From contig CAWBMP010000002.1 in NCBI GenBank assembly GCA_963790025.1, positions 416,001-480,000 of the forward strand: a DNA stretch of 64,000 nt, in the 5' to 3' direction. This document shows, one piece after another, positions 3,334 to 34,158 of this stretch. A model generated the notes under the pieces. That model did not search any database. It worked only from the letters and a program-made list of their open reading frames with translations, and was not told where the DNA came from. Source of the DNA: Nitrospirota bacterium. Lineage in GTDB: Bacteria > Nitrospirota > Thermodesulfovibrionia > Thermodesulfovibrionales > Dissulfurispiraceae. Made by a program: the position numbers and the translations under genes. Position 1 is the stretch's first letter; each line of letters starts with the position of its first letter.

Positions 3334-4027
3334 GCAATCCTCCTTTTACGATTCCTGTTATCCTGCCGTCAGCCATCTTCATTATCCTGTCCGCATATTC
3401 GAATATCCTGCTATCATGCGTAACAATTATAATGCACCGGTTCTCGTTCAGTATATTTTTTTTTACAAAATCCACAATTCTTCTTCCTGTTTCGCCATCC
3501 AGGGACGCGGTAGGCTCGTCGAAAATCAGGATATCGGGACTGCTGGCTATTGCCCTTGCGATTGCCACCCGTTGCTGCTCCCCACCGCTTAATTTGACCG
3601 GGGGAAGCTGCGCCCGGTCCTTTATCCCCACTATTTCCAGATACTTCATGGCGATGTTTATGGATTCATTCCAGTCCATCCTTTTTAAAATCAGGGGAAT
3701 CGCTGCGTTTTCCACCGTTGTCAGTTTTGGAAAGAGGTGATAATCCTGAAACACGAATCCCACCTTATTCAATCTGAAATCGGCGATCTGGTCGCCGGTA
3801 AAACTCCAGATGTCTTCATCATCCACAATTACAGTCCCCGAATTCGGTCTGAGGATGCCCGATATGATGCTCAACAACGTCGTTTTCCCGCTCCCGGATG
3901 GGCCTTCTATATAAAGCATTTCTCCAAAATAGGCTTCAAAACTGACGTCCCTCACCGCGTAAGTTTTGGCTTCTCCTTCGCCAAACCATTTGACCAGTTC
4001 TTTTGCGCTCACTGCCAGTCTGGGCAT
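3323..4027 (-). CDS. ABC transporter ATP-binding protein (MacB/LolD/DevA-like)
   Basis: GPSGSGKT, GFVFQ, LSGGEQQRVAIARA, DEPT, VTHD. Confidence 0.95.
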   Translation of the reverse strand: MPRLAVSAKELVKWFGEGEAKTYAVRDVSFEAYFGEMLYIEGPSGSGKTTLLSIISGILRPNSGTVIVDDEDIWSFTGDQIADFRLNKVGFVFQDYHLFPKLTTVENAAIPLILKRMDWNESINIAMKYLEIVGIKDRAQLPPVKLSGGEQQRVAIARAIASSPDILIFDEPTASLDGETGRRIVDFVKKNILNENRCIIIVTHDSRIFEYADRIMKMADGRITGIVKGGLREE

Positions 4028-4028
4028 A

Positions 4029-5165
4029 TTAACCTCTGAAGATATCGAAAGGCTCTATTTTGATCACTTTTCTCACTCCGATATAACTCGAAATCGCAGC
4101 TATTATCAGTACCATCACAAAAGCAAATGCGAGGCTTGTATAAGCTATCATGGCCGCATAGCTCGGCAACCTGAATTTAGCCAGGGCTATTACAAGGGAG
4201 GCCAGTCCAACTCCCATTCCATAACCAGTGAGTGCAGTAAAAGTCGCCTGGAACAATATCATATAAATAAGTTCCGATCCTTTGGCGCCTATCGCCTTTA
4301 AGGCCCCGAATTTTTCAAGGTTCTCAAGTATGAAGGTATAGAAGGTCTGCCCGCTGATTGACAACCCTACAATAAAACTTATTACAGTCATTATCAGCAC
4401 GTTCATGCCGAGACCTGTCTGGTATTTATAATAAGTCGAAATTTTCCGGATAAATTGATCCTTTGTGAGGGCTTGATAGCCGAGCGCTTTTATCTGCTGT
4501 TGAATGTAGGGTACAGCCGCGATGCTCTTCGGTTCTATAAGGATATATGAAATAGTGAACCTCATCGAAGGAATATACTGAATCGCCCTATTGTACGTGG
4601 TATACAGAGTGGGGGTCCCAAACAGGGAGCCGACACTGACCCGTGCTATTCCGACAATAACACCCCTGTGGTCGTTTATCTCAAATTCAGTTCCTAGCCC
4701 GGGGTTCCCCAGTTTGGGATATTCCGAATCCTTGACCACAATAAATGAATTTTCGGCATAGATGTCCTCGATGTGTCCCTGAAGCAGGCCCGGTCTGCCA
4801 AACAGACTTGCATCATCCAGCCCTATGACAGTTACTGCCTGATAATCGCCGCTCCGAAGTTTCACAAGGCCTGCACCGGAATACAAAGGCACAGCATATT
4901 TGACTCCGTTGATGCTCCGTACCGCGTCCAGTACATAATCCGGCATCGGGATGCTGTTAGCCGGAGTATTTACTGCAGGGTCCATTACCCACACCTTGGC
5001 CCCTACATTAACGACTGTGGCTGATGCCCTGTGCAATATACCTGCGAACATCGATGTCATCATAACCATCAAAAAGACAGCAAAGGTTATTCCGACAAGC
5101 AGTGCCGCGAATTTCCCTCTGTCGTTTACGAGCAGTTTATATGCAATTTTGAGGATTCCCTTCAT
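4029..5165 (-). CDS. ABC permease (FtsX/DevC-like)
   Basis: N-terminal TM, periplasmic domain, FGALKAIGA, three C-terminal TMs. Confidence 0.9.
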   Translation of the reverse strand: MKGILKIAYKLLVNDRGKFAALLVGITFAVFLMVMMTSMFAGILHRASATVVNVGAKVWVMDPAVNTPANSIPMPDYVLDAVRSINGVKYAVPLYSGAGLVKLRSGDYQAVTVIGLDDASLFGRPGLLQGHIEDIYAENSFIVVKDSEYPKLGNPGLGTEFEINDHRGVIVGIARVSVGSLFGTPTLYTTYNRAIQYIPSMRFTISYILIEPKSIAAVPYIQQQIKALGYQALTKDQFIRKISTYYKYQTGLGMNVLIMTVISFIVGLSISGQTFYTFILENLEKFGALKAIGAKGSELIYMILFQATFTALTGYGMGVGLASLVIALAKFRLPSYAAMIAYTSLAFAFVMVLIIAAISSYIGVRKVIKIEPFDIFRG

Positions 5166-5247
5166 ACGGCTTCACCCCTCTGCATCACGTGCTCATCTGC
5201 AAATACAAGCTTACAACATAGTGGAAATAAAAAACACAGTGCTATTA

Positions 5248-6699
5248 TTATTTTTTCTCGAGGACGGCATTTGCCGGTACGTATTCCCAACCGCCCCCCA
5301 GGGCCTTGTAAAGGGCGATGAGATCAATTATGATGTTGCGCTCGCTTTGAACCAATGCGTCTTCCGAGGCGTAAAGTGAGCGCTGGGCATCGAGCACATT
5401 CAAAAAAGGAATTTGGCCTTCGGTGTAAAGCTGGAGCGACAAGTCCACGGCCTTGCGGTTGGCTGCTACGGCATCTCTAAGAGATTTGCGGTGTTCCTGT
5501 TCCTTTGCAAACGCAATTAGCGCATTTTCGACATCCTGAAATGCTGTCAGGACTGTTTTCTGGTATGTGATGAACGATTGGTCGCGCAGCGCTTCCTGCA
5601 AGCGAACGTTGGACACAATAGCGCCCCCCTGGAAAACCGGCCAATTCAGTGATGGGCCGAAAGAGAACGAACGGTTAGCATCGCTCCACCATGTGTGAAG
5701 CAGGTTGCTATGCCAGTTCACAGTGCCGGTCAGCGAAAAAGAAGGAAAGAGCTGCGCAACGGCAACACCGATTTCGGCTGTGGCGGCATGGAGTTGCGCT
5801 TCGGCTTCACGGATGTCAGGCCGGCGGCGCAGCAATTCTGACGGAAGCCCGGCAGGGATTTTAGCGGGGACCACTGGCAGACTGCCTGTGAGCGATAATT
5901 TCTCAAGCAAATCGGCAGGTGGCCGCGCTAGCAGCACGCTCAAAGAATAAATGGATTGCTGAGCTGCTGTTTCAAAGACCGGGATTTGAGACTCCGTGGT
6001 AGCAACGTTAGAGTCGGCGTTGGCAACATCGAGCGCACTGTCGAAGCCCACACTGAATAGTTTACGGGTAATTTCAGCTGTGTGCTGCTGGGCTTTAAGG
6101 TTATCTTGCGCAGTCACTATCTCCTGTTGGTAACCGCGTAGTTGAATATAATCAAGCGCTACTTCGGCAATGAGGCTGACCTGCACATCCCGGATGTTTT
6201 CGACAGCGGTCTGGATGTTGGCGTTGGCCGATTCTATATTGCGGCGAATGCCGCCGAACAGATCAAGTTCCCACACAGCATCCACTCCTGACTGGTAAAG
6301 GTCCTGCTGTTGATTATCAGGAGTGATCCCGGCCGTGTGGATCCTCTGGTAACTTCCGGCGGCGATAACGGACGGCCACAAGCCTCCTATTGCGATACCA
6401 CTCAAGGCGCGCGCCTGGCGCAACCGGGCCCCAGCGATCTGCAAGTCGAGGTTCGCCTTCACCGCTTCCCCGACTAGTTCGTTCAGTATTGGATCGTTGA
6501 ACTGACACCACCACTGAGTGAGTTCAGCCGGCAGCGCAGTGGCCACTGATGGTTCATTCGGTATCTTCGACACGCCCGCCCACGCAGCGGGGGCTGCCAT
6601 CTGCGGCGGACGAAACTCCGGACCCACCATGCAACCGCTGATTATAAGCAAGGACAAACCGGCGGCAATCAGGACTGGAAGAGAAGCTGTCTTACTCAT
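5248..6699 (-). CDS. Outer-membrane efflux lipoprotein (NodT/TolC family)
   Basis: Probable start MSKTAS overlapping the upstream stop; lipobox ISGC, WELDLFG, RRRPDI, LYKALGGGW. Confidence 0.92.
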   Translation of the reverse strand: MSKTASLPVLIAAGLSLLIISGCMVGPEFRPPQMAAPAAWAGVSKIPNEPSVATALPAELTQWWCQFNDPILNELVGEAVKANLDLQIAGARLRQARALSGIAIGGLWPSVIAAGSYQRIHTAGITPDNQQQDLYQSGVDAVWELDLFGGIRRNIESANANIQTAVENIRDVQVSLIAEVALDYIQLRGYQQEIVTAQDNLKAQQHTAEITRKLFSVGFDSALDVANADSNVATTESQIPVFETAAQQSIYSLSVLLARPPADLLEKLSLTGSLPVVPAKIPAGLPSELLRRRPDIREAEAQLHAATAEIGVAVAQLFPSFSLTGTVNWHSNLLHTWWSDANRSFSFGPSLNWPVFQGGAIVSNVRLQEALRDQSFITYQKTVLTAFQDVENALIAFAKEQEHRKSLRDAVAANRKAVDLSLQLYTEGQIPFLNVLDAQRSLYASEDALVQSERNIIIDLIALYKALGGGWEYVPANAVLEKK

Positions 6700-8065
6700 A
6701 TCTGAGCGCATCGATTGGATCGAGCCGGGATGCCTTCCATGCCGGATAAAAACCAAAGACGACCCCCACAACAGCCGATACGACCACTGAAACCACGATG
6801 GCGCCCACCGAGGCCGCTGTCGGCCAGTGCAGTACCTTCGTTACAATATACGAAGCGGTGCGGCCCAGTATGATCCCCATAGTGCCGCCGAGCAGGCACA
6901 GCACTATAGCTTCCGTCAAAAACTGACGCAGTATGTCTGCCGGCTCTGCGCCCACTGCCATGCGCAGGCCGATCTCCCGCGTCCGTTCCGTGACCGAGAC
7001 GAGCATAATGTTCATGATCCCAATACCTCCGACAACCAGCGAAATCATCGCAACACATAACAGGAGCTTGGTTATCAACTCAGTCGTCGAACTCATCGCC
7101 TTGGTAATCTCGGTCATGTCGCGTATAGTGAAATCGCTCGGATCGCCCGGCAAAAGGTGATGGCGCTCCCTGAGCAGCACGGTCATTTCCTGCATGGCCG
7201 AAGGTATCTGTATCGCTGACTGGGCGGCGGTCAATATCTGGTCCACGTTAGTGAACCGGATAGGCTGTGGGGTGTCAGCCTGCTCTGTAGCCGACGCAAC
7301 CGGGTAGAGGTTCTGAGCGAGATTAGGATATACCTGACTCAATGAAATGGCTTCGTTGCCGCTTGAAGTATTTGTATTGCTCTGATTGCCGGCAGAAAGA
7401 GAAGTAGCTACCACACGGTATTTGATGGTTGTCCATGGCGCCAGCAGGATATCATCCTGGTCCATGCCCATCATGTTTGCTCCCTTCGGGCGTAATACTC
7501 CAATGACCTTGAAGGCCACATTCCGTATCCGGATTTCCTTGCCTATGGGAAATTCTCCGCCGAACAACTGTCTTACGATAGTCTGGCCTATCAAACACAC
7601 CTTGTTTACATTCAGGACATCATGATCGCTGAAAGATTCACCGCTATCAAGATCGGTCCAATCCCTGACCTCCAGAAATTGAGGAGTAGTGCCATAGAGG
7701 TAAGTCGGAACGTAGTTGCGGTTGCCGAATACCAGCTGGGTGCGGGCGCGCACTATCGGCGCAACGTTGCGGACAGCAGGACACTCTTTGATTATCGCAT
7801 CGGCGTCCTGCGGTGTGAGGGTCATCATGCTGCCGATCCCCATATTGATGCCGCTTGCAGTTGCCGCTCCTGGAACGATGACAAGGGTGTTGGCGCCCAT
7901 GCTGGCCATGGTTTTCTGGATTGCAATAGTCGCGCCGTGGCCGATCTCCATCATAGTGATCACCGCCGCAACTCCGATCACGATGCCCAAAGTTGTGAGC
8001 AGTGTCCTCATGACGTTGCGGCGCAGAGCATTTAAAGCCGTTTTCAGGATACCGTACCAGTTCAT
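6692..8065 (-). CDS. MacB-type ABC permease
   Basis: LTTLGIVIGVAAV, VGGIGIMNIMLVSVTERTREIGLRMAVGA, ASRLDPIDALRYE. Confidence 0.95.
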   Translation of the reverse strand: MNWYGILKTALNALRRNVMRTLLTTLGIVIGVAAVITMMEIGHGATIAIQKTMASMGANTLVIVPGAATASGINMGIGSMMTLTPQDADAIIKECPAVRNVAPIVRARTQLVFGNRNYVPTYLYGTTPQFLEVRDWTDLDSGESFSDHDVLNVNKVCLIGQTIVRQLFGGEFPIGKEIRIRNVAFKVIGVLRPKGANMMGMDQDDILLAPWTTIKYRVVATSLSAGNQSNTNTSSGNEAISLSQVYPNLAQNLYPVASATEQADTPQPIRFTNVDQILTAAQSAIQIPSAMQEMTVLLRERHHLLPGDPSDFTIRDMTEITKAMSSTTELITKLLLCVAMISLVVGGIGIMNIMLVSVTERTREIGLRMAVGAEPADILRQFLTEAIVLCLLGGTMGIILGRTASYIVTKVLHWPTAASVGAIVVSVVVSAVVGVVFGFYPAWKASRLDPIDALRYE

Positions 8066-8772
8066 ACTGCATCCCTAGACTTGCATATATCGGAACTTTT
8101 TTCTATGTGGCCATCCTTGATATTAACGATCCGCCTCGCATGCTGCGCCACGCCGGGATCGTGGGTAACAAGTATGATAGTGATGCCCTCTTCAGTATTG
8201 AGCTGCCGGAACATCACGAGGAGTTCCTCATTGGTGCGCGAGTCGAGGTTGCCTGTCGGCTCATCGGCCAGGAGTACCTGCGGATGGTTGATCAGAGACC
8301 GTGCTATCGCCACGCGCTGCTGTTGGCCGCCCGAAAGCTGTGATGGGAGATGTTCCAGGCGATCAGCCAAACCCACTTTGTCCAACAGTTCAGCAGCTCG
8401 TTGCTTCTTTTGGCTCTCACTGAGGTCCTCTTTTGTATAGAGCAGAGGCATCATTACATTCTCCAGCGCGGATGTGCGCGGCAGCAGGTTGAAGGTTTGG
8501 AAAACGAAACCGATCATACGGTTTCGCAGTCTTGCCTGCTCCGTTGCATTGAGCCTGGAAACCTCCCTGTCGTCGAACCAGTACTCCCCTGCAGTCGGAC
8601 GATCCAGGCAACCGATAATGTTCATAAGCGTGCTTTTGCCGGAACCGCTCGAGCCCATCAGGGCCACGAATTCGCCGCGAGATACACTGAGCGTCACGCC
8701 CATAAGCACCGGAAGATCAACTTCGCCAAGACGGTAAGTCTTACGAATATCGCGCAATTCGATCAAATCCAT
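8062..8772 (-). CDS. MacB-type ABC ATP-binding protein
   Basis: GSSGSGKSTLMNIIGCLD, LSGGQQQRVAIAR, DEPTGNLD; start taken at MDLIEL. Confidence 0.95.
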   Translation of the reverse strand: MDLIELRDIRKTYRLGEVDLPVLMGVTLSVSRGEFVALMGSSGSGKSTLMNIIGCLDRPTAGEYWFDDREVSRLNATEQARLRNRMIGFVFQTFNLLPRTSALENVMMPLLYTKEDLSESQKKQRAAELLDKVGLADRLEHLPSQLSGGQQQRVAIARSLINHPQVLLADEPTGNLDSRTNEELLVMFRQLNTEEGITIILVTHDPGVAQHARRIVNIKDGHIEKSSDICKSRDAV

Positions 8773-8844
8773 GTCACAGCAACTCCACAATATGTATTAG
8801 CCTTAATTGCCCGGGCAATTCCATGATTCTCATAGTTCCATTTC

Positions 8845-10179
8845 TTAGGGCCGTCCCCGGCCGACCTGGGGTGTGAAAGGACTTCGTTCTGCACCGGGAC
8901 CGGCTTTGACTTCGGGAGCAGCTTCGCCGACAACGGCCTGCAACCCCTCGGACAGGTCCCTGTCTTCGACTTCCGTTACTACTCCATCAGTCAAACCAAC
9001 CTTCACATGGATAGGCCGGACAAATTTACCTTGCTCGACCCAGATTGTACCCCGGGCTTGCATAGCGCCGCCTGCGCCATGTCCTTCCCCTTTGCCCAAA
9101 CCTGATGCCGCTGCCTGGACATGCGATTTTCTACGGGCTTCCGGTGATATCTGGTTTGGTAAGGGGGACCAGCGCAGTGCCGCATTCGGGACCACCAGCA
9201 CCCCATGACGGCGGCCAACCATAAAATGGGCGTTGGCGGTCAGGTATGGCAACAGTTTGCCGTCGTCATTGTCTGTGTTGACCTCAATAGTATATGTTAC
9301 TACGTTCTGCACCATCGTCGCGTTAAGGCGGATTTTACCGACTTCTCCGTGAAAAACCCGGTTGGGAAATGCATCTACAGTGAATGTAACCGGCTGGCCT
9401 TTTGAAATGCTGCCGATATCGGCTTCATTAACAGACACCCAAACCTGGATGTGCTTCAAGTCTTTCGCGATAAGGAACAGGCTCGTGGCACTCATACTCG
9501 ACACAACGGTCTGACCGATATTTACCTGCCGGTCAACAATCACACCCTTGACCGGCGACTTGATGGTACAGTAACCGAGATTCACCTGTGCGCTGTCAAG
9601 GTTGGCCTTTGCTTGCGCTACTGCTGCCTTCGTCTGCTCCACTGCTGCATGGGCAGCTGCCAGGTTGGCTTTGGCAACTTCAAAATTTGCCCGGTACTGG
9701 TCATAAGCGCTTTTAGCCAATGCATCGGATGGCCCGAGCTTCTGAGCCCTGTCCCAGTCTTGCCCGGCCTGCAGCAACTTGGCTTCCATCTGGAGAACAT
9801 TGGCGTCAGCGGTGATCTTGTTGGCCATTGCCTGCTGCAATTGGGCCTTGGCAGCTTCTACGGCAGCCGCATAAAGTGAATCGTCGATCCTAGCCAGCAC
9901 AGTGCCTGCTTCAACAGGCGAACGGTAATTGATCATGCTCCCGAATTTGTCTTTGCCGAAGCTGCTGATGATCCCCGAAACCTGGGCGCCGACATCCACG
10001 ACTACCTCCGGCTCCACTGTGCCTGTTGCGCTGATCGTAGCTTCAAGGTCTCCACGTTTGATCTCAGCGGTGCGGAACATCGGTCCTTTACTCCCGCTGG
10101 AGCGAAGCCACCAAAAACAGCCAATAACTATAGACAGGCCGATAACTACAAGTATTGTCATGCCAACTTTTCGTTTCAT
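8845..10179 (-). CDS. MacA-like efflux periplasmic adaptor, copy 2
   Basis: SATGTVEP, VGAQVSG, IKSPVKGVIVDR, VNEADIG, NVVTY, VPNAALR. Confidence 0.93.
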   Translation of the reverse strand: MKRKVGMTILVVIGLSIVIGCFWWLRSSGSKGPMFRTAEIKRGDLEATISATGTVEPEVVVDVGAQVSGIISSFGKDKFGSMINYRSPVEAGTVLARIDDSLYAAAVEAAKAQLQQAMANKITADANVLQMEAKLLQAGQDWDRAQKLGPSDALAKSAYDQYRANFEVAKANLAAAHAAVEQTKAAVAQAKANLDSAQVNLGYCTIKSPVKGVIVDRQVNIGQTVVSSMSATSLFLIAKDLKHIQVWVSVNEADIGSISKGQPVTFTVDAFPNRVFHGEVGKIRLNATMVQNVVTYTIEVNTDNDDGKLLPYLTANAHFMVGRRHGVLVVPNAALRWSPLPNQISPEARRKSHVQAAASGLGKGEGHGAGGAMQARGTIWVEQGKFVRPIHVKVGLTDGVVTEVEDRDLSEGLQAVVGEAAPEVKAGPGAERSPFTPQVGRGRP

Positions 10180-10261
10180 CTTAACTCCAGTCGTTATGGA
10201 CAGTCTAAAAGTTACAGTTGTTAACCTTTAGCTTTTTCCAATGCTCAATTAAGAGAGTATC

Positions 10262-11533
10262 TTAAGGTGCAGCTTCGCCGACGACGGCTTGCAAACCCTC
10301 GGACAGGTCCTTGCCTTTGACTTCCGTTACTACTCCGTCAGTAAGACCAATATTGACATGGATAGGCTTGACAAATTTGCCCTGTTCGATCCAGATGGTC
10401 CCCCGCCGGGCTTGCGTCGCTCCTCCGGAGCCATGCCCTCCGTTACTGTCCGAATCTGATATTCCTGTCTGAGAGCGGGATTTTCTCCGGGCTTCCGGTG
10501 CGATTTGATCTGGCAAGGGAGACCAGCGCAGCGCCGCATTCGGGACCACCAGCACTCCCTCACGGCGGCCAACCTGAAAATTGGCTTTGGCGGTCATGTA
10601 TGGCAACAGCTTGCCGTCGGCATTGTTTGTGTTAACCTCGACAGTATATGTTACTACATTCTGCGTCATAGTCGCGTTGAACCGGGTTTGGCCGACTTCT
10701 CCGTGAAAAACGCGGTTGGGAAATGCATCTACTGTCAATGTTACAGGCTGACCTTCTGAAATGCTGCCTACATCAGATTCATTAACAGAAGCCCAAACCT
10801 GGACTTGTTTCAAGTCCTTCGCAATGAGGAACAGGCTCGTGGCACTCATACTCGACACAACGGTCTGACCGATATTTACCCGTCGGTCAACAATCACACC
10901 CTTGACAGGCGACTTAATTGTACAATAACCGAGATTCACCTGCGCGCTGCCGAGGTTGGCCTTTGCTTGCAATACTGCCGCCTTTGTCTGTTCCACAGCT
11001 GATTCAGCTGCTGCCAGGTTGGCTTTGGCAACCTCGAAATTTGCCCTGTACTGGTCGTAAGCGCTTTTAGACAATGCATCGGATGGCCCGAGCCTCTGGG
11101 CCCTGTCCCAGTCCTGCCGGGCCTGCAGTAACAAGGCTTCCATCTGAAGGATATTGGCATCGGCAGCGATCTTGTTGGCCATTGCCTGCTTCAGTTGTGC
11201 CTTAGAAGCTTCTACGGCAGCAGCATAAAGTGAATCGTCTATTCTCGCAAGTACAGTGCCCGGTTCAACAGGCGAACTGTAATTGATCATATTTCCGTAT
11301 TTGTCTTTGCCGAAGCTGCTGATCATCCCAGAAACCTGGGAGCCGACATCCACTACTACCTCCGGCTCCACTGTACCTGTTGCGCTGATTGTAGCTTCAA
11401 GGTCGCCACGTTTAATCACCACGGTACGGAATATCGGCCCTTTGCTCCCGCTGGCGCGAAGCCAAAAAATGCCGCCGCCGATGATAAACAAGCAAAAAAC
11501 TACCAGTATTGTTATTCCAACTTTTCGTTTCAC
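10262..11533 (-). CDS. MacA-like efflux periplasmic adaptor, copy 1 (tandem paralog; GTG 11533 or ATG 11551 start)
   Basis: Collinear and highly similar to 8845..10179 but lacks its last 22 residues. Confidence 0.9.
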   Translation of the reverse strand: MKRKVGITILVVFCLFIIGGGIFWLRASGSKGPIFRTVVIKRGDLEATISATGTVEPEVVVDVGSQVSGMISSFGKDKYGNMINYSSPVEPGTVLARIDDSLYAAAVEASKAQLKQAMANKIAADANILQMEALLLQARQDWDRAQRLGPSDALSKSAYDQYRANFEVAKANLAAAESAVEQTKAAVLQAKANLGSAQVNLGYCTIKSPVKGVIVDRRVNIGQTVVSSMSATSLFLIAKDLKQVQVWASVNESDVGSISEGQPVTLTVDAFPNRVFHGEVGQTRFNATMTQNVVTYTVEVNTNNADGKLLPYMTAKANFQVGRREGVLVVPNAALRWSPLPDQIAPEARRKSRSQTGISDSDSNGGHGSGGATQARRGTIWIEQGKFVKPIHVNIGLTDGVVTEVKGKDLSEGLQAVVGEAAP

Positions 11534-11832
11534 CCTTAATTGAGTCGTCATGGACAATCCAAAGGTTACAAGTGATATATAATATATAAAAAATACGTGG
11601 TCAAATTCATTATTGTGCCTCTCACCTTTTTACAGAATCAAGGCAGGAAATTTTTTCCGGGCGATAAACGAGAAGAGGAAAACATTGCCTGACTATCACT
11701 TGAACCCTTACAAAAACTTGCCTTTCATTACTGGACAGTTAATGATCTTTTACAGTTTAAAGATATTTCCGACATCTGATAATTAAAGGAAGTTTTCTGT
11801 TTTATTCCTCAAATCCTTCCATTCCCGTGATT

Positions 11833-11893: not shown

Positions 11894-12529
11894 ATGACGA
11901 TTCAATCAATCAGCACTCTCTATCAGAATCAGAACACAATGCAGACAGATTTCAAGAATTTTCGCAAAAACTTAAATGCCCTTCAGAGTGCGTTAAATTC
12001 AGGGAACCAGGACCAGGTTACGTTGTCTGAGACCGCTTTATCTGCAGCAATAACACAACTCCAGGGCAACTTTTCTACGCAGTCGGCCGGAGGCGGCAAT
12101 TCTGCCCAGGGCACGGGTAACACCGGTATGCAAAGTTTCCAGACCGACCTGCAGGCCCTCCAGACAGCTCTGAATTCAGCTGCCTCAGGCACTACGTCTA
12201 CGCCGTCCACTTCTGCGACAACCTCTACAACTCTGCAAAACTCTGTGGGCATTGCGTTGAACCAAGTTAAAAGCGACCTCTTCAGTATTAAGGAACATCG
12301 CCACCATCACCATCATGTGGGGGGTGGCAACTCCGGCAGTAACGCTTCCGGGGGTACCGGTTCTGCCTCGTCAAGCAGTGACACTAATAGCGACGATCTA
12401 ATGTTACAACTCCTTGGCATGTTGAATAGTAACACAAGCAGCGCCTCCGGCAATAACACTACTTCTCTGGCTGCACTCTTTGGCATGGTAAATAGCGGAA
12501 GCACTAACGGCATCAGCATTAAGACATAA
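11894..12529 (+). CDS. Hypothetical S/T/N/Q/G-rich protein with His tract
   Basis: AGGAGG RBS; HRHHHHH; repeated 'F..(D/N)L.ALQ.ALNS' helix; downstream hairpin. Confidence 0.85.
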   Translation: MTIQSISTLYQNQNTMQTDFKNFRKNLNALQSALNSGNQDQVTLSETALSAAITQLQGNFSTQSAGGGNSAQGTGNTGMQSFQTDLQALQTALNSAASGTTSTPSTSATTSTTLQNSVGIALNQVKSDLFSIKEHRHHHHHVGGGNSGSNASGGTGSASSSSDTNSDDLMLQLLGMLNSNTSSASGNNTTSLAALFGMVNSGSTNGISIKT

Positions 12530-16300: not shown

Positions 16301-16879
16301 ATGTCGTATACCGCAAAGGATTATGGAAAGCTCATAGGCATGGAAGGCTTCAGCGAAACATTGCTCAAGAACCACTTTACACTCTACCAGGGTTATGTCA
16401 CAAACACTAACAAAGTCCTTGATTCGCTGTCGGCGATGATAAAAGAGGAGAAAGGAGGCACGCCCGAGTTTGCAGAGATGAAGAGAAGGCTCGGCTGGGA
16501 ATTCAACGGTATGAGACTCCACGAATACTACTTTGAGAACCTCGGCGGCAAGGGCGGCATACAGAAAGACGGCAAGCTCACCGCAAAGCTTGCTGAGGAT
16601 TTCGGAAGCTATGAAGCGTGGGAGAAGCACTTCAGAGCGACCGGCGCCATGAGAGGTATAGGATGGGTTGCACTTTATCAGGATACTTCAAACGGCAAGC
16701 TTATCAATTTCTGGATAAATGAGCATGATACGGGACACCCGGCGGGGGGCAACCCGATATTGATAATGGATGTGTTTGAGCATGCCTTCATGACCGATTA
16801 TGGTCTCAAGAGGGTCGATTATATCGAGGCATTCTTCAAAAATATCGATTGGAAAACAGTGGAAGGACGACTTAAATAA
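16301..16879 (+). CDS. Fe/Mn superoxide dismutase family protein (atypical, ChrC-like N-terminus)
   Basis: NHFTLYQGYV, GMRLHEYYF, GIGWVAL, MDVFEHAF; AGGAGG RBS. Confidence 0.92.
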   Translation: MSYTAKDYGKLIGMEGFSETLLKNHFTLYQGYVTNTNKVLDSLSAMIKEEKGGTPEFAEMKRRLGWEFNGMRLHEYYFENLGGKGGIQKDGKLTAKLAEDFGSYEAWEKHFRATGAMRGIGWVALYQDTSNGKLINFWINEHDTGHPAGGNPILIMDVFEHAFMTDYGLKRVDYIEAFFKNIDWKTVEGRLK

Positions 16880-16999
16880 AAAGAAACCACAGAGGCACAG
16901 AGACACAGAGAAAAAGTCAGGTTAAAATAATTCCTGTAAAAATCTTTTTTATATATTATTTCTCCGTGTCAGTGCCTCTGTGGTCAGGATTTTGACACT

Positions 17000-17113
17000 A
17001 TGCAAAAAGAAAGTTTTTCCAGAAAGATAGCTTTCCTGAGGGCTGGATGGTGGATAATTCATTTTATCGGTATATCAATTGTGTATACATTGGGGCATCT
17101 TCTCTGGAGGTAA
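17000..17113 (+). CDS. 37-aa single-TM peptide, PsbE (cytochrome b559 alpha)-like; absent from the ORF track
   Basis: MQKESFSRKIAFLRAGWWIIHFIGISIVYTLGHLLWR*; AGGA 10 nt upstream; paralogous to the next ORF. Confidence 0.75.
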   Translation: MQKESFSRKIAFLRAGWWIIHFIGISIVYTLGHLLWR

Positions 17114-17114
17114 T

Positions 17115-17219
17115 ATGCTGAAGTATTTTATGCGGTTCAAACCCGGCTGGTGGATTCTCCACATTCTCGCGATAGGGCTGACTTTTTATCTTGGCCATAT
17201 GGCAAGATTTTCGTCTTAG
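17115..17219 (+). CDS. 34-aa single-TM peptide, PsbF (cytochrome b559 beta)-like; absent from the ORF track
   Basis: MLKYFMRFKPGWWILHILAIGLTFYLGHMARFSS*; GGAGG at 17106-17110; ATG one base after the previous stop. Confidence 0.8.
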   Translation: MLKYFMRFKPGWWILHILAIGLTFYLGHMARFSS

Positions 17220-17228
17220 GGTTTGCGC

Positions 17229-17630
17229 ATGACTAAAAAAGTATTGCTGGTTGCCTTGTTTCTCATAGCATTGTCGGGGTTGATGCTTCATTGGCGCATC
17301 CATAGCTTCATGGTGCACGACAAAGTGCACCCTGAGGTTCTGGTTTTCGACGGTACCCGCTTCCTCTCTTTTATATTTCCGCTTATTGATGTTATTGTAG
17401 TAACGATACTCTTCATGTCGAGGAAGACTGCTGTTTATGGCTATCTTCTTAACGGGTTAATAGTAATTTACGGAACGGTTTTTATGGCCCATTTCAGTAT
17501 TGCCGAAATGATCACAAAATCTCTGCCCCTCGACTCGCTGCTGGTGAAATCGACACTGCCGGATATCATGGTGGCATGGGTTGATTTTTTGATTGGCAAA
17601 GCACTTTACGACCTGCACATGAAAGGTTGA
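17229..17630 (+). CDS. Hypothetical multi-pass membrane protein with intramembrane His
   Basis: About 4 hydrophobic segments; LMLHWRIH, FMAHFS; tight operon spacing. Confidence 0.85.
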   Translation: MTKKVLLVALFLIALSGLMLHWRIHSFMVHDKVHPEVLVFDGTRFLSFIFPLIDVIVVTILFMSRKTAVYGYLLNGLIVIYGTVFMAHFSIAEMITKSLPLDSLLVKSTLPDIMVAWVDFLIGKALYDLHMKG

Positions 17631-17634
17631 TATA

Positions 17635-18081
17635 ATGCCGCACGCGGGTTTGATGAATGCTTATGAACTTGGTCCCGAAGCAGCAGCCCTGCAGCAGGCA
17701 AAGCTTCACATAAGGGGTGGAAGGCGCAGATTGACACAGGGAAAGATCGCTGAAGGCATAGTTACGCTCTACGATGCCCTGAGCAGTGCAATGCAGTGGT
17801 ATATACTTTCCCCCGCGCGTCGGGCGCTGCTCCGCATTACTGATGATGACGACCTTAACAACGATAGAACCGTTTTTGACATTTTGACCAGCTCAGGAGT
17901 ACTTGACGGAACCTTCGATTACGAAGCTTTTGACCTGGTAGTGGAGCGGGCGCTCCGTGAAAGTCTCCCTGATTATGATTATTCCCCCCTGGTTGAGGGA
18001 ATCGAATCAGTGATGACGCAGCTCCGGGTGATGCCTTTCGATGAAAATTCGCTTCCGCCCGAAGACCCGGCAACATATTAA
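17635..18081 (+). CDS. Hypothetical protein
   Basis: 148-aa ORF 4 nt after the previous stop. Confidence 0.8.
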   Translation: MPHAGLMNAYELGPEAAALQQAKLHIRGGRRRLTQGKIAEGIVTLYDALSSAMQWYILSPARRALLRITDDDDLNNDRTVFDILTSSGVLDGTFDYEAFDLVVERALRESLPDYDYSPLVEGIESVMTQLRVMPFDENSLPPEDPATY

Positions 18082-18176: not shown

Positions 18177-18596
18177 ATGATTTTTACCGAGGACTTTGAC
18201 GACCAGTTGAGAAGTCTGGGCAGGGAATTCCTGATTGCCGATATTCAGTATGTGAACAGCTTGACTTCGTGGACAAAAAAGAATAACGCATCGCTGAGCG
18301 AGCCCGCACAGCCCATGAAACTTATCACAGGCGCCAATAACCAGCTTGTGATGATTGTGCAAAAAGAGATAAGTGATGAGGCGGTTGAAGGCATTATCAA
18401 CGCGCTGAGTGTGAGGTGGGCGGTCAGCGATGTTGTTACGGATATCAACAAACGGCTTAACAGCCCCGAGAAAAAGCTGGCCTGGTACTTTCTGAAAGAA
18501 TATGCCAGGACAAAAGAAGACCTCGTCGGAGACGACCTGCTTGAAGATCGGTGGACCATCAATAAGATGGAGAAATTGGGATTTTTCAGAAAATGA
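18177..18596 (+). CDS. Hypothetical protein
   Basis: GGGGAG RBS; ATGA overlap with the next gene. Confidence 0.8.
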   Translation: MIFTEDFDDQLRSLGREFLIADIQYVNSLTSWTKKNNASLSEPAQPMKLITGANNQLVMIVQKEISDEAVEGIINALSVRWAVSDVVTDINKRLNSPEKKLAWYFLKEYARTKEDLVGDDLLEDRWTINKMEKLGFFRK

Positions 18597-20551
18597 ACAG
18601 ACTCGCTAAAGAGAGGTCTCCCTATCTTGCCCATGCAGCCGGTCAGAAGATAGACTGGCATCCATGGTCTGAAGAAGCATTTGAAAAAGCGCGCCGCGAG
18701 GACAAACCGGTTTTCCTGAGTTCTGGCGCCATATGGTGCCACTGGTGTCATGTGATGGCAAAGGAATGTTTTTTTGATGACGAGATTGCCGCTCTGCTCA
18801 ACGAAAATTTTGTGAGTATAAAGCTTGACAGGGATGAGCGGCCTGACATTGACAGGCGCTACCAGCATGCAGTAACTGCAATGGGAGCTGCAGGAGGATG
18901 GCCGCTCAGCGTGTTTCTTACGGCCGAAAAAAAGCCTTTTTTCGGGGGCACCTATTTCCCGCCTGATGACAGTTACGGAAGGCCGGGGTTTAAAAAAGTA
19001 CTCAGGGAAATTAGCAAAGCATACAAGTCGGACAGGCGGGAAGTCGAGCGCTACACAGAGCAGCTGATGGATTTCATCAAGCCGAAGCCCGCTATATGGG
19101 GCGACATAAACAGAACACTGCTTGACGGCGTGCAGCCAGCTATGCTGTCGCAATTTGACGCTCAGAACGGCGGGTTCGGCACTGCCCCAAAATTTCCCAT
19201 GCCAGGTGCAATATCATTCCTGCTTTACCAGCATTTTTTTACGGGCAGCGAGTCAAGCGGTTATTCTGCAATAAAAACGCTTGAGGCCATGGCAAAAGGC
19301 GGGTTCCATGATCAGCTCAAGGGCGGATTCCACCGGTACTCTGTTGATGAAGGCTGGATTGTTCCCCACTTCGAGAAGATGGCCGATGATAACGCATGGC
19401 TTCTGAGAAATTATGCCGATGCCTGGTCCATCTTCGGCAACGACTATTTCAAAGAGGTCGCACTGGGAATTATCAGCTTTACCAGGGATGTCCTGTCCGA
19501 CAAAGAGGGAGGGTTTTATGCGAGCCAGGATGCTGATGTTACCCCTGATGACGAGGGAGGATATTTCACCTGGACAGAAGATGATTTCAAAAGTGTGCTG
19601 AACGATGAAGAATTCCCGGTGCTTTCCCTGCATCTGCTCCACGACCGGGGGAGCATGCACCACGACAGTACAAAGCATGTTCTTTTTGTTGCCACAGAAA
19701 GCGACGCTATCGCGCAGGAGCTCAAAATGGATGCAGGCCTGCCTGATCACCTTATCAGGCAGGGCAAAGCCAAGCTGCTTCAGGCACGGCAAAAGCGGGA
19801 GGAGCCCTTTATCGATACAACAATCTACACCTCCTTAAACGGAATGCTGATAACATCGTATCTCAGGGCTTACCGGGCCTTTAAAGATATCGCCATAAAG
19901 GATTTTGCACTCAAAAGTCTATGGAGAATACTGGAAATCAGTTTTGCAGAAAAAGAACTGCTCCATACCTATGGGATAAAAGCGCTGCTGGACGATTACG
20001 TATATTTAATCGAGGCGCTTGTTGCAGCCTATGAAGTTTCCGGCAACAGAGAATTCCTTGGCACGGCCGATGCACTAATGGAAAAATGCCTGGACAGATT
20101 CTGGGACAAGAATGGAGGCGGCTTTTTCGATACCGATACCGAGGTCCTCGGTCTAAGATTGAAGGGGATTGAAGACATCCCTCATCCATCGGCCAATGCT
20201 GCCGCAATAATGCTGCTGATCAAATTGTTTTACGCAACAGACAAATCAATGTATCGCCGGTATGCGGAGATTGCACTTGCGGCATTTTCACAAAAAGTGA
20301 GCGAGTTAGGTATCCATGCAGGACATTATTTCTGCTCGCTTGATTCTCATTTTCGTATGATACGGTTGACAGTGGAAGCCCGCCCGGAGAGCAGGCTCGG
20401 CAATATGGCTGTCTCCCTATTTGCCCCATATATAAGCATTGTTTACTCCAAAGACAACAACCGTATTGTCCCGTGTATGGGCGGTTCATGTTATGAGCCG
20501 GTAGAAGATGAAGAACAGTTAAAGGAATTTATCCGCTCAACCAGGAAATGA
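18593..20551 (+). CDS. YyaL/SSP411-like thioredoxin-domain protein (DUF255)
   Basis: NRLAKERSPYL, WCHWCHVM, DRDERPDID, GGWPL, VPHFEKM. Confidence 0.95.
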   Translation: MNRLAKERSPYLAHAAGQKIDWHPWSEEAFEKARREDKPVFLSSGAIWCHWCHVMAKECFFDDEIAALLNENFVSIKLDRDERPDIDRRYQHAVTAMGAAGGWPLSVFLTAEKKPFFGGTYFPPDDSYGRPGFKKVLREISKAYKSDRREVERYTEQLMDFIKPKPAIWGDINRTLLDGVQPAMLSQFDAQNGGFGTAPKFPMPGAISFLLYQHFFTGSESSGYSAIKTLEAMAKGGFHDQLKGGFHRYSVDEGWIVPHFEKMADDNAWLLRNYADAWSIFGNDYFKEVALGIISFTRDVLSDKEGGFYASQDADVTPDDEGGYFTWTEDDFKSVLNDEEFPVLSLHLLHDRGSMHHDSTKHVLFVATESDAIAQELKMDAGLPDHLIRQGKAKLLQARQKREEPFIDTTIYTSLNGMLITSYLRAYRAFKDIAIKDFALKSLWRILEISFAEKELLHTYGIKALLDDYVYLIEALVAAYEVSGNREFLGTADALMEKCLDRFWDKNGGGFFDTDTEVLGLRLKGIEDIPHPSANAAAIMLLIKLFYATDKSMYRRYAEIALAAFSQKVSELGIHAGHYFCSLDSHFRMIRLTVEARPESRLGNMAVSLFAPYISIVYSKDNNRIVPCMGGSCYEPVEDEEQLKEFIRSTRK

Positions 20552-28196: not shown

Positions 28197-30044
28197 TTAG
28201 TGCGCCTTCGCCCAGTTTTTTCCCCATCCGATCTCGACTTTCAGGGGGACTGAAAGATCAAGGGCAGATTCCATTCCGGTCGCGATTAACTCTCTGGTTT
28301 CATCTATCTCATCTTCCGGTACTTCAAAAAGAAGCTCGTCATGTATTTGCAAGAGCATTCTTGCTGAAAGATTTTTAGCTTTCAGTGCATCTGAAACCCG
28401 CACCATCGCTATCTTGATCAAATCGGCGGCAGTGCCCTGAATTGGGGTATTTATAGCAAGCCGGTCTGCCTGCTGCCTGGTCGCGGCATTTGTGCTAGCA
28501 ATTTCAGGCAACGGTCTTATTCTACCCAGAAGTGTTGTGACGAAGCCGTGCTGTTTTGCAGCATTTATTGTACGCTCCATATACCGTTTCACTCCGGCAT
28601 GTCTATTGAAATATTTTTCTATGAAGGCAGCTGCCTCTTTCGGCGCGATAGAGAGCGCTTCGGACAATCCATAGGAACTCATTCCATACGCAATGCCGAA
28701 ATTTACAACTTTGGCCGCCCTCCTCATATCGGCGGTAACAGCATGGAGATGTACTCCGAATATCTCTGAGGCGGTCCTGGCATGAACATCAATGTTATTT
28801 TTAAAAGCATCAATAAGGCTTTCGTCTTCGCTGATGTGCGCCAATATCCGCAATTCAACCTGGGAGTAGTCAGCTGAAACAAGCAAATATCCTTGGTCGG
28901 CAACAAAAATCTCTCTGATTTTAGTTCCCCACTCACCACGGATTGGAATATTCTGAAGATTGGGATCACTGCTGCTCAACCTGCCAGTTGAGGTAACGGT
29001 CTGGTTAAATGAAGTATGGATACGGCCTGTTCTTTCATTAATCAGTTCCGGGAGAGTGTCCGTATAGGTTGTTTTAAGCTTATAGAGCGTTCGGTAATTA
29101 AGGATTTCCCCGGGGAGATCGTGGGTCTTTGCCAGTTCCTCAAGTACGTCCATACCTGTAGAAAAGCCGGTTTTCGTTTTCTTGAGCGGTTTCATCCCGA
29201 GGTCCTCGAAAAGCACTTTGCAGAGCTGGCGCGGGGAGTTTATGTTAAAGGCGCTGCCGGCAAGAGTATATATTTTTGACTGGAGAGCCTCCAGCTCGCG
29301 TTCGAGTTCCTTTGATAATTCCTCGGTACGTTTTTTGTCGATTTTGATTCCGGCCTCTTCCATATCGGTCAGGATATAGATAAGGGGCATCTCGATGTCA
29401 AAGTAGAGGTGTTCGAGCCCTGCATCCTTCAGCTTGCCGAAAAGAATATCTTTCAGTTCCATTGCCAGTTCGGCATCTTCGGCAGCATACCGTGTGGCCT
29501 CCTCAACCGGGACCTCCGCAAAGGATTGCCTTTTACCCAAAACTTCGGCAAAGGGGCGTTTATTGTGCGCGAGGTGTTCACGCGCCACATCTTCGAGGCT
29601 GTGATCGGGTTTATTCGGGTTCAGCAGGTAGGAAGCCACCATGGTATCATAGAGCATCCCTTGCACGTGGATTCCCTCCTGTTTGAGTATAAGAATGTCA
29701 TATTTCAGATTATGTCCTACCTTCGCAATCGCAGGGTCCTCCAGCACCGGCTTTAAAATGACGACGGCCTCCGGGACATTATATGATCCGGAGTAACTGT
29801 CGGCGTGTCTCCCGGAGTGCCTGATAGGAACATAATATGATCTGCCTTTCTCCCTGCAGAGGGCGATCCCTACAATAGTATCACTCATCGGATCTCTGCC
29901 AGTTGCCTCTATGTCAAATGATAATTCTGAAATAGGGGCGGTCTTAGCCCTTTTGGCTTGCAAGCCCCTGCTTTTGGCGGATATACCTTCGACCTCGTGC
30001 TGCGAATCATGCACATTATCTCCAAAGAGCGGGTATTGTTTCAT
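28197..30044 (-). CDS. polA: DNA polymerase I, 3'-5' exonuclease plus polymerase (Klenow-like) part
   Basis: FDIEATG, GHNLKYD, YAAEDA, TGRLSSSDPNLQNIP, ADYSQVELR, LQIHDEL; ATG at 30044 overlaps the upstream TGA. Confidence 0.92.
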   Translation of the reverse strand: MKQYPLFGDNVHDSQHEVEGISAKSRGLQAKRAKTAPISELSFDIEATGRDPMSDTIVGIALCREKGRSYYVPIRHSGRHADSYSGSYNVPEAVVILKPVLEDPAIAKVGHNLKYDILILKQEGIHVQGMLYDTMVASYLLNPNKPDHSLEDVAREHLAHNKRPFAEVLGKRQSFAEVPVEEATRYAAEDAELAMELKDILFGKLKDAGLEHLYFDIEMPLIYILTDMEEAGIKIDKKRTEELSKELERELEALQSKIYTLAGSAFNINSPRQLCKVLFEDLGMKPLKKTKTGFSTGMDVLEELAKTHDLPGEILNYRTLYKLKTTYTDTLPELINERTGRIHTSFNQTVTSTGRLSSSDPNLQNIPIRGEWGTKIREIFVADQGYLLVSADYSQVELRILAHISEDESLIDAFKNNIDVHARTASEIFGVHLHAVTADMRRAAKVVNFGIAYGMSSYGLSEALSIAPKEAAAFIEKYFNRHAGVKRYMERTINAAKQHGFVTTLLGRIRPLPEIASTNAATRQQADRLAINTPIQGTAADLIKIAMVRVSDALKAKNLSARMLLQIHDELLFEVPEDEIDETRELIATGMESALDLSVPLKVEIGWGKNWAKAH

Positions 30045-30964
30045 GAGGCAAGCCCGAGAAATTCCTGGAGCTGTTCCCTGCTGATAATCGTTACATATTC
30101 TCCCCGCGGCGCATGACCTTGCGAGGGAACAAGCTTTATAAGGCTTTTGAATTCCAGTTCTGTAAACAGGGAAAGGAGCGCCGTCCAATCCGGCCCTTTG
30201 ATCATAAGATCGGGCAGATGGGCCTCAACAGGCAGGTCCATATCGATGGTTGCAAGCGACCGGCTCAGCCTGATTTGTTCGACGTTTTCCGTTATTAACT
30301 TTCTCAGGCGCTTGTTTTCGATTTTTTCGGGATGGTCCAGCAGGCTCTCCAGACCTCCCGCCTTCAAAAGAAGAACTTTGGCGGTCTTTTCCCCGATGCC
30401 TTTTACTCCCGGTATATTATCAACAGCATCGCCACCGAGTGCCATGATTTCGGCAATCTTTTCGGGAGGCATCTCAAAGCGATCTCTAATATATTTATCG
30501 TCAATAATTACTTCTTTCATAGGATCGTAAATCTTGATGAAACTATTAACTGCCTGCATCATGTCTTTATCACCGCTAACAATAAACACGCGGGCCTGCT
30601 GTACAGCGGCTTTCCTCGCAAGTGTGCAGATAACATCGTCCGCCTCATAGCCGGGCATTTCGAAAACTGGAATGTTAAAGGCCTTTATCACCTCCTTGAT
30701 CAGCGGGATCTGAATAATCAGATCGCCCGGCGTTTCGGGCCTCTTTGCCTTATAGTGTTCATAGAGCCTGTGGCGTTCAGTCGGTACCGGGGAATCAAAG
30801 ACTATTGCCAAAGCATCAGGTTTCTTCTCCCGAAGTATCTTCAGTACCATGGTAGTGAAACCGTAAACCGCGTTCGTCGGGATGCCTTTTGAGTTGGTAA
30901 GCTTTTTTATGGCATGGAAGGCCCTGTGAAAATAGGAGTTCCCGTCAATCAGGTAAAGGTCCAT
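30041..30964 (-). CDS. polA: DNA polymerase I, 5'-3' exonuclease part (separate ORF)
   Basis: LIDGNSY, PTNAVYGF, GYEADDVI, SGDKD, DNIPGVKGIGEKTA. Confidence 0.92.
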   Translation of the reverse strand: MDLYLIDGNSYFHRAFHAIKKLTNSKGIPTNAVYGFTTMVLKILREKKPDALAIVFDSPVPTERHRLYEHYKAKRPETPGDLIIQIPLIKEVIKAFNIPVFEMPGYEADDVICTLARKAAVQQARVFIVSGDKDMMQAVNSFIKIYDPMKEVIIDDKYIRDRFEMPPEKIAEIMALGGDAVDNIPGVKGIGEKTAKVLLLKAGGLESLLDHPEKIENKRLRKLITENVEQIRLSRSLATIDMDLPVEAHLPDLMIKGPDWTALLSLFTELEFKSLIKLVPSQGHAPRGEYVTIISREQLQEFLGLAS

Positions 30965-34059: not shown

Positions 34060-34158
34060 TGCTGTTTGAGGGGTCGAAGGGGAGTTATGAAGAGAGGCTA
34101 ATTAAAAAGGTTTTCTCTGTTCCTCTGTGGTTAATTATTAATAAAAAAGGAGAAGAGT

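Follow-up and report, generated by a model that had tools for sequence, protein, structure and literature searches.

The 64,000-nucleotide (nt) stretch analysed here (hereafter the window), from the Nitrospirota bacterium assembly GCA_963790025.1 (contig CAWBMP010000002.1, forward-strand positions 416,001 to 480,000; family Dissulfurispiraceae), carries two very short adjacent open reading frames (ORFs), which we call pep1 and pep2, followed directly by a gene for a larger membrane protein, mem133. These three genes form one unit that recurs in many genomes. The module is supported by co-travelling genes, selection on the peptides, conservation of their His residues, natural gene fusions and a weak, specific likeness of the peptides to cytochrome b559, the two-peptide haem protein of photosystem II (PSII). 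We propose, at somewhat short of an even chance, that the module encodes a membrane cytochrome of three subunits, in which a bis-His haem of the b559 type would sit at the cytoplasmic face, and which would work with rubredoxin-type partners.

Relatives of the module were collected by a genome scan that used one genome per species. The scan returned 141, and the best 80 of these 141 are the loci examined here. According to their labels, 53 of the 80 are of Nitrospirota type (Thermodesulfovibrionia, Dissulfurispiraceae and others) and 16 are Desulfobacterota or 'delta', with the remaining labels being 'Proteobacteria' (2), unclassified (4) or other phyla (5). The tandem pair of peptide genes is found in 77 of the 80 loci, in the conserved order that a first-pass annotation of the window had proposed to look for. 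When the window is included, 78 of 81 sources carry two in-frame WWxxH motifs on the same strand, 97 to 186 nt apart (exactly 100 nt in 52 of them), where the pairs were located by the WWxxH motif itself. A tblastn match to mem133 is adjacent to the pair in 77 of the 80 loci, and in all but one of these (L072) it lies directly downstream of pep2. The pair described by the first-pass annotation is real, but the constant third gene had been overlooked: the real unit is pep1, pep2 and mem133.

The annotation had quoted both ORFs exactly, along with the single base that separates them (17114) and the GGAGG that precedes the second. Its span for the pair, 16986 to 17219, ends at the right nucleotide but starts 14 nt upstream of the pep1 ATG at 17000. 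The pep2 ORF is listed from an upstream TTG, and the conserved start is the ATG at 17115. Both peptides contain G-W-W-I-x-H, nine residues and L-G-H, with the identical spacing noted earlier. Among relatives, pep1 can be described by the motif F-L-R-x-G-W-W-x-x-H ... L-G-H-x-L-W-R and pep2 by K-P-G-W-W-x-L-H ... Y-L-G-H. In alignments of 53 sequences each, the invariant residues are L13, W17, W18, H21, I25 and Y29 of pep1 and G11, W12, W13, L15, H16 and G27 of pep2. A quick tree places pep1 and pep2 on opposite sides of one branch (Shimodaira–Hasegawa-like approximate likelihood ratio test value of 99), and because of this split the two peptides fit an origin from one old duplication. The earlier description of the peptides as a selected pair of membrane proteins is borne out: they are real, paralogous and single-helix, and each retains one His throughout.

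Selection at the protein level, which had been suggested as a check, is evident for both peptides. The proportion of nonsynonymous differences (pN) is lower than that of synonymous differences (pS) in every one of 3003 sequence pairs, and the median pN/pS values of 0.33 for pep1 and 0.22 for pep2 indicate purifying selection. Mean values of pS and pN are 0.78 and 0.26 for pep1 and 0.80 and 0.19 for pep2. When pep1 DNA is read in its other two frames as a control, these values are 0.37 and 0.37 in one frame and 0.22 and 0.42 in the other. On this comparative evidence, pep1 and pep2 are real genes.

The two genes also appear to be linked at the level of translation. The GGAGG of the window (17106-17110) falls within the last codons of pep1, such that the codons for its C-terminal Trp-Arg (TGG AGG, in the region 17103-17117) form the Shine-Dalgarno sequence of pep2. 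Because of this double use, part of the conservation of the pep1 'LWR' ending may serve pep2 translation. The pep1 stop is separated from the pep2 start by 1 nt in 50 of the 78 pairs, and a Shine-Dalgarno-like word precedes pep2 in 63 of them (GGAGG in 39). This spacing and these words fit translational coupling, and therefore pep2 is probably coupled to pep1.

The peptides of the window have no match in Pfam (2025) or NCBIfam (2026) at E ≤ 1, nor in Pfam at E ≤ 10. A word-indexed protein search, which has a minimum query length of 40 residues and hence was run with slightly longer queries taken from the window DNA, recovered 10 close relatives of pep1 and 15 of pep2, all of them short. In public protein sets such relatives are unnamed or called 'hypothetical protein'. 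Run against 1.84 billion proteins with a threshold of E ≤ 0.001, a profile built from the close relatives of both peptides (A1) matched 92 representative clusters. All of these matches are short save for a few fusions and one 270-residue repeat protein (P0087), which we rejected as a spurious match. Two broader profiles were then available, one of 89 diverse representatives (A5) and one of the distant half of the representatives (A9), whose members were picked by their rank in the A1 search and not by likeness to b559. P0087 and the fusion proteins P0039, P0072, P0112 and P0114 were left out of both.

These profiles were compared by hmmsearch with 177,635 distinct Protein Data Bank (PDB) sequences at E ≤ 10. 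The profile of pep2 and its close relatives yields nine matches, all to PsbF (best E value of 0.16), and that of pep1 and its close relatives yields two, to PsbF (0.61) and PsbE (2.6). The mixed profile A1 has 18 matches, again all to PsbF (best E value of 0.047). With A5 there are 69 matches; every one of the 60 listed is chain E or F of PSII, the best E value is 8.6e-4 (21.7 bits), and PsbE appears from 0.17. Of these 60 chains, 59 carry the name b559, PsbE or PsbF, while the remaining one, an F chain, is called 'protein Y'. A9 likewise gives 69 matches, the 60 listed again being chain E or F of PSII without exception, and its best E value is 1.8e-4 (23.9 bits). Cytochrome b559 is the only solved-structure family among the listed PDB matches of the peptide profiles. 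In every printed alignment, the conserved His of the family falls on the His of the PsbF or PsbE helix, and the run common to the family and b559 is W, x3, H, x, L, A, [IV], x3, F, [FY], L, G. In a decoy control comprising 20,138 six-frame ORFs (1.27 million residues), nothing outside the family scored above 7.2 bits. When members are conversely compared with Pfam, the family matched by most of them is PF00283 (5 of 26 and 16 of 89), with a best E value of 0.001. For pep2, the ten best named neighbours in the ESM Atlas belong to the b559 family or clan (scores of 0.76 to 0.83), which we take as a lead only.

The first-pass annotation had likened pep1 to PsbE and pep2 to PsbF. That assignment is not supported by the profiles, since both score PsbF best and PsbE is reached by the pep1 profile only at an E value of 2.6. 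The general resemblance extends beyond the alignments. As in b559, there are two adjacent genes that each encode one transmembrane helix, and each helix has one conserved His near its N-terminal end, a few residues after an aromatic residue. The His-bearing end is predicted to be cytoplasmic for pep1 and pep2, and is described as stromal in PSII (PMC6697814). Both systems also have a rubredoxin-type partner, which is fused to the peptide in some pep1-type relatives and, according to the same source, is encoded in the same gene cluster in cyanobacteria. There, rubA, for a membrane-anchored rubredoxin, is reported to lie in one cluster with ycf48 and psbE-F-L-J (PMC6697814). The b559 protein is described as present in all oxygenic phototrophs and essential for PSII biogenesis, with a role that is still debated (PMC6697814, PMC11638105), and as an additional subunit that sets PSII apart from the anoxygenic type II reaction centres (Cardona, PMC4773611). 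Both b559 and b6 are reported to take up haem and assemble spontaneously, in vitro as well as in vivo (PMC5730185).

There are also clear differences between the two systems. No cyanobacterium is named in the labels of the 80 loci, which instead give Nitrospirota, Desulfobacterota and other taxa. Unlike PsbE, pep1 ends four residues after L-G-H and has no lumenal C-terminal domain, and neither pep1 nor pep2 matches PF00284, the family for this domain of the alpha subunit. Neither psbL and psbJ nor D1 and D2 accompany the peptides, whose downstream partner is instead a four-helix protein of no known family. A basic residue is located 7 positions before the His in the peptides versus 5 in b559, and the Pro that follows the His of b559 occurs only in a few distant members of the peptide family. 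On balance, the chance that the peptides and b559 are remote homologues appears to us about even. The main arguments in favour are that the E value improves as the profile broadens and that no other family is among the matches. Convergence is possible as well, because the likeness is limited to 16 to 28 residues of one hydrophobic helix. In the literature covered, which leaves most subscription journals outside, we found no work on b559 relatives outside phototrophs.

Conservation of the His residues is informative about how many haems the peptides might hold. The first His (of WWxxH) is invariant in both alignments (53 of 53 for pep1 and 53 of 53 for pep2) and is present in both peptides of all 78 pairs, although that motif was itself used to find them. 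The LGH His, noted by the first-pass annotation as a second His, is not invariant. It is retained in 65 of 78 pep1 sequences, where the 13 others have N, A, R, Y, K, Q or V, and in 69 of 78 pep2 sequences, where the nine others have A, S, Y, R or K. Five of the 78 modules have lost it from both peptides, and these keep the His residues of mem133. Because of the 13 and nine replacements, a di-haem peptide pair as first suggested is unlikely to be the core design.

The distribution of charge indicates how the peptides are probably oriented. The mean number of Lys plus Arg residues N-terminal of the helix is 3.6 for pep1 and 2.6 for pep2, and on the C-terminal side it is 0.8 for both. Because basic residues concentrate before the helix (the positive-inside pattern), both N-termini are predicted to be cytoplasmic, and the conserved His should be located approximately one turn into the cytoplasmic leaflet. 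This orientation also fits the natural fusions, wherein a rubredoxin-like domain is N-terminal of one peptide and another peptide follows the predicted cytoplasmic C-terminus of mem133.

The AlphaFold2 model of mem133 (predicted local distance difference test score, pLDDT, of 91; predicted template modelling score of 0.82) is made up of four long helices, with a short hairpin within the first outer loop. In a 53-sequence alignment, the two His residues where helix 1 ends (H21 and H25, in L-H-x-R-x-H) and N75-G76 are invariant; H88, where helix 3 ends, is nearly invariant, as are D54, D112 and D119. Counts of charged residues predict that both termini and the short loop 2 are inside, which would set H21, H25 and H88 at the outer (periplasmic) face. 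The only Pfam or NCBIfam matches of the protein at E ≤ 1 are MauE (0.37) and TCR_zetazeta (0.92), each falling far short of its cut-off, and its model has no Foldseek match in the PDB at E ≤ 0.001. We set aside the top Foldseek matches of this model and of a fusion protein model, P0121 (claudins, transmembrane AMPA receptor regulatory proteins and G-protein-coupled receptors, at E values of 0.26 or worse), as generic helix bundles. The mem133 profile has 11 PDB matches, of which 10 are to CD3-zeta and the other is to an ATP-binding cassette (ABC) ATPase; the CD3-zeta match (E value of 0.044) was rejected as chance and kept as a single-helix control. In the ESM Atlas, only unnamed clusters are near mem133, and the nearest named entries (DoxX/DUF6163 and others), which scored at most 0.86, were not used.

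Several loci depart from the common arrangement. In L072, from a genome labelled Planctomycetia, the genes at 5596-6207 have the variant order mem133, pep1, pep2, and the proteins in which mem133 is fused to a peptide resemble this subfamily, including its short first loop. Loci L077, L079 and L080 (labelled Firmicutes, Solirubrobacterales and Brevinematales, respectively) have a single WWxxH peptide and no mem133, and may represent homodimeric forms.

Three kinds of natural fusion involve the peptides. In the first, the C-terminus of mem133 is joined to a WWxxH peptide. This is seen in three protein clusters, namely P0112/P0117 (168 residues), P0121 (178 residues, with its fragment P0098) and the fragment P0107. 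In the model of P0121 the peptide helix is a block of moderate confidence (pLDDT of 60 to 75), and its packing is not settled by the model. In the second kind, represented by P0053, P0122 and P0123 from three different sources (70 residues each, 67-69% identical), a rubredoxin-like domain directly precedes a pep1-type WWxxH helix. The domain matches PF21349 (RUBY_RBDX) at 44.2, 48.4 and 47.7 bits against a cut-off of 26.5, and classical rubredoxin (PF00301) weakly. Both Cys-x-x-Cys pairs are visible in the alignment, and the second His of the helix is Asn in all three proteins. No fusion of this kind was seen outside these three protein clusters, the 80 loci included, and pep1 of the window has no such domain. 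The layout would put an iron-sulphur electron carrier on the cytoplasmic side beside the conserved His, which we regard as the strongest hint of function. In the third kind, two WWxxH helices are joined by a loop of approximately 24 residues (clusters P0039/P0118/P0119 and P0072/P0120).

An arrangement comparable to the second kind is provided by RubA and its eukaryotic orthologue RBD1, which is described as a stromal rubredoxin domain with one C-terminal helix and is proposed to be the b559 reductant from the stromal side (PMC6697814). Like P0053, P0122 and P0123, RubA/RBD1 as described there has a cytoplasmic or stromal rubredoxin-type domain plus one helix at the C-terminus, and is tied to a b559-type pair. 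The likeness considered here is one of layout. The domain in our three proteins is the rubrerythrin-type PF21349, and the helix itself is a pep1-type WWxxH peptide.

The gene setting of the module leans toward oxidant defence, though it is variable. A superoxide dismutase (SOD) gene is indeed upstream of the pair in the window, as had been recognized, but SOD is within the flanks of only 8 of the 80 loci (2 upstream and 6 downstream) and hence does not define the system. A redox role, which the first-pass annotation had derived from the position of sod, is instead supported by the rubredoxin-like fusions. Recurrent ORF clusters in the 80 loci include the DUF255 thioredoxin-like protein (14 loci), rubrerythrin (12), pyridine-nucleotide disulphide oxidoreductase (12), DJ-1/PfpI (9), nitroreductase (9), NifU (7) and universal stress protein (7). 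Of the named ORFs that come directly after mem133 on the same strand, rubrerythrin is the most frequent (8 of 78 sources), and in 19 sources there is no same-strand ORF within 200 nt after mem133. At least one of seven redox or stress families (SOD, rubrerythrin, DUF255 thioredoxin-like protein, pyridine-nucleotide disulphide reductase, DJ-1/PfpI, nitroreductase and NifU) is present within flanks of approximately 6 kb in 38 of the 80 loci. Among the papers listed by a literature search for a membrane cytochrome or small membrane protein tied to rubrerythrin in these organisms, none was relevant.

These observations can be combined in a model wherein pep1, pep2 and mem133 would be subunits of one small membrane complex. 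Both peptides would insert with the N-terminus in the cytoplasm, and their two conserved His residues together might ligate one b-type haem near the cytoplasmic face, by analogy with PsbE and PsbF on the stromal side. The mem133 subunit would pack against the peptide pair, and its three His residues at the periplasmic face could hold a second redox cofactor, either haem or metal. Such a complex might exchange electrons with rubredoxin-type proteins of the cytoplasm, for instance rubredoxin and rubrerythrin, by moving them across the membrane or along it, in the service of oxygen and oxidant defence in anaerobic Nitrospirota and Desulfobacterota.

Small di-haem cytochromes b, such as b561/CybB and the subunits of hydrogenase and formate dehydrogenase, are few-helix bundles with His residues near both faces that could carry electrons across the membrane. 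The putative complex would be analogous in having conserved His residues near both membrane faces. It would differ in that its helices are split over three polypeptides, and in its His pattern: each peptide would contribute one His at one face, and the opposite face would have H-x3-H and a further His. Neither mem133 nor the peptides match these families in Pfam at E ≤ 1 or by fold.

A number of observations weigh against the cytochrome model. All relatives of the module are from metagenome-assembled genomes of uncultured organisms and are known from sequence only. Only b559 chains are listed among the PDB matches, with the His residues aligned, but not one of the 89 members reaches the PF00283 gathering score of 30 bits (best, 18.9 bits). 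The peptides of the window and their close relatives match b559 only at E values of 0.16 to 0.61, and the spurious match to the single helix of CD3-zeta, at 0.044, demonstrates that an E value near 0.05 means little for one helix. The short extent of the likeness (16 to 28 hydrophobic-helix residues) counts on the same side. Moreover, another family, DUF4381 (PF14316), is matched by 11 of the 89 members with a best E value of 0.0065. In the two-peptide fusions, unless the loop re-enters the membrane, the two His residues would end up at opposite faces; these fusions do not fit a simple parallel pair and are unexplained. Finally, 42 of the 80 loci have none of the seven redox or stress families in their flanks.

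Some of these observations could also be accommodated if the module were a membrane complex that binds, senses or moves a metal (Fe, Cu, Zn, Ni or Mn) and is not a cytochrome, with the likeness to b559 being convergent or due to chance. The ligands would then be the His and Asp residues of mem133 together with the peptide His. We consider this unlikely. In mem133, an H-x-x-x-H, a third His and conserved Asp residues are at one membrane face, and clusters of His and Asp of this sort are common in metal sites. NifU-like genes follow mem133 in seven sources, and the E values for single helices are modest in view of the spurious control. However, no match to a transporter or metal-chaperone family is found in Pfam, in NCBIfam or by fold, and the peptide His is predicted to be at the face opposite the His cluster of mem133. 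The rubredoxin-like fusion points to electron transfer, and the listed PDB matches are to b559 only and improve with a broader profile.

The peptides might instead be structural or assembly subunits of mem133, which would carry the function, much as many respiratory complexes have small subunits, with WWxxH serving as an interfacial anchor or hydrogen-bond donor and not as a cofactor ligand. Trp and His at the start of a helix suit a membrane interface, and the modelled peptide helix of P0121 is of moderate confidence. The same P-G-W-W start of a transmembrane helix is found in DUF4381, which is unrelated. Its weak matches (best 17.2 bits versus a cut-off of 27.2, reaching only to about position 57 of a 145-position model, and absent for the window peptides) were put down to this common helix start, and we rejected DUF4381 as the identity of the family. 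A purely structural role is nevertheless quite unlikely, as the retention of the His in both peptides over the 78 motif-found pairs, while nearby hydrophobic positions vary, exceeds what a mere anchor would need. It also leaves the duplicated pair with its equal spacing and the rubredoxin-like fusion without explanation.

Handling of haem or another porphyrin, in the sense of its delivery, storage or protection and not electron transfer, seems very unlikely. Likeness to a haem-binding helix pair suits haem binding of any purpose, and W-W-x-x-H is reminiscent of the 'WWD' motifs with flanking His residues that handle haem in cytochrome c maturation. Yet there is no Pfam match to a cytochrome c maturation or haem transport family, no gene for haem biosynthesis or cytochrome maturation is among the clusters found in at least five loci, and the rubredoxin-like fusion suggests redox chemistry. 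The notion that both ORFs are chance open frames, which their shortness and the absence of a known family for the window's own peptides might invite, is refuted within the sequence evidence by the conserved tandem order, the deficit of pN in all 3003 pairs per peptide against flat off-frame controls, the 92 representative clusters, and the Shine-Dalgarno-like words with coupled spacing.

The features near the module are collected in the table below.

Features of the window in and around the three-gene module (positions within the window)
Feature	Position	Strand	Description
Fe/Mn superoxide dismutase	16301..16879	+	Pfam Sod_Fe_C, E 1.1e-26; variable neighbour, outside the core
Palindrome	16886..16984	.	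99 nt, in the sod-pep1 spacer; AT-rich loop; RNA fold of -41.1 kcal/mol (z of -6.4)
pep1	17000..17113	+	37 residues, single-helix membrane peptide; ATG 17000, TAA 17111-17113
pep2	17115..17219	+	34 residues, single-helix membrane peptide; ATG 17115, TAG 17217-17219
mem133	17229..17630	+	133-residue four-helix membrane protein, directly downstream of pep2
orf148	17635..18081	+	148 residues, 4 nt after mem133; no Pfam/NCBIfam match
orf139	18177..18596	+	139 residues; overlaps start of DUF255 gene; no Pfam/NCBIfam match
Thioredoxin-like DUF255 protein	18593..20551	+	652 residues; Pfam Thioredox_DsbH, E 5.9e-69

Two further ORFs follow the module in the window. Relatives of orf148 are detected by tblastn in 8 of the 80 loci, and it is the next same-strand ORF after mem133 in six sources; relatives of orf139 are detected in 10 loci. 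The palindrome between sod and pep1 reaches the gathering score of no Rfam family and has only sub-threshold hairpin look-alikes. The sod match of L001 and L002, which are the closest relatives, stops approximately 15 to 20 nt short of the pep1 start. Because this leaves no room for the palindrome, it is probably an inserted element, or else a regulatory or terminator hairpin. A third copy of its 15-nt arm motif, with one mismatch, occurs at 34116-34130 just upstream of a signal peptidase gene, and the copies may mark a small repeated element.

The window is otherwise an ordinary chromosomal stretch, with rpoB/rpoC, genes for EF-Tu, nusG, L1, polA, riboflavin genes, NifU/NifS and two MacB-type efflux sets. 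A scan of 33 other large ORFs found no photosynthesis domains or genes. The two tandem efflux sets (797-11557, minus strand) comprise an outer-membrane factor, an HlyD-type adaptor, an ABC ATPase and an FtsX/MacB permease. A 211-residue ORF at 11894-12529 (plus strand) is rich in Ser, Thr, Gly, Asn and Gln and includes the run H-R-H-H-H-H-H. DNA polymerase I is encoded on the minus strand (28200-30964) by two overlapping ORFs, one for the 5'-3' exonuclease (30044-30964) and one for the 3'-5' exonuclease and polymerase (28200-30188), which reflects either a natural split or a frameshift.

The most far-reaching interpretation, which we hold to be rather unlikely, is that the peptides are true homologues of PsbE and PsbF, and thus the first b559 relatives outside oxygenic photosynthesis, residing in a rubredoxin-linked oxidant-defence module of strict anaerobes from which PSII recruited them. 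If so, PSII would not have invented b559, but rather would have recruited a pre-existing oxygen-defence haem peptide pair and its rubredoxin partner, as in the rubA-psbEF cluster, and the photoprotective role of b559, away from the main electron path, would thereby be accounted for. A b559-like pair in anaerobes would make the origin of b559 testable and would suggest oxidant defence as its original task. Should the likeness be convergent, the module is still a widespread three-gene family without a family assignment (141 genome matches and 92 representative clusters), two of whose proteins have fewer than 40 residues and are of the kind that routine annotation tends to miss. As a cytochrome of the type proposed, it would add an unrecognized membrane component to the oxygen-defence systems of anaerobes.

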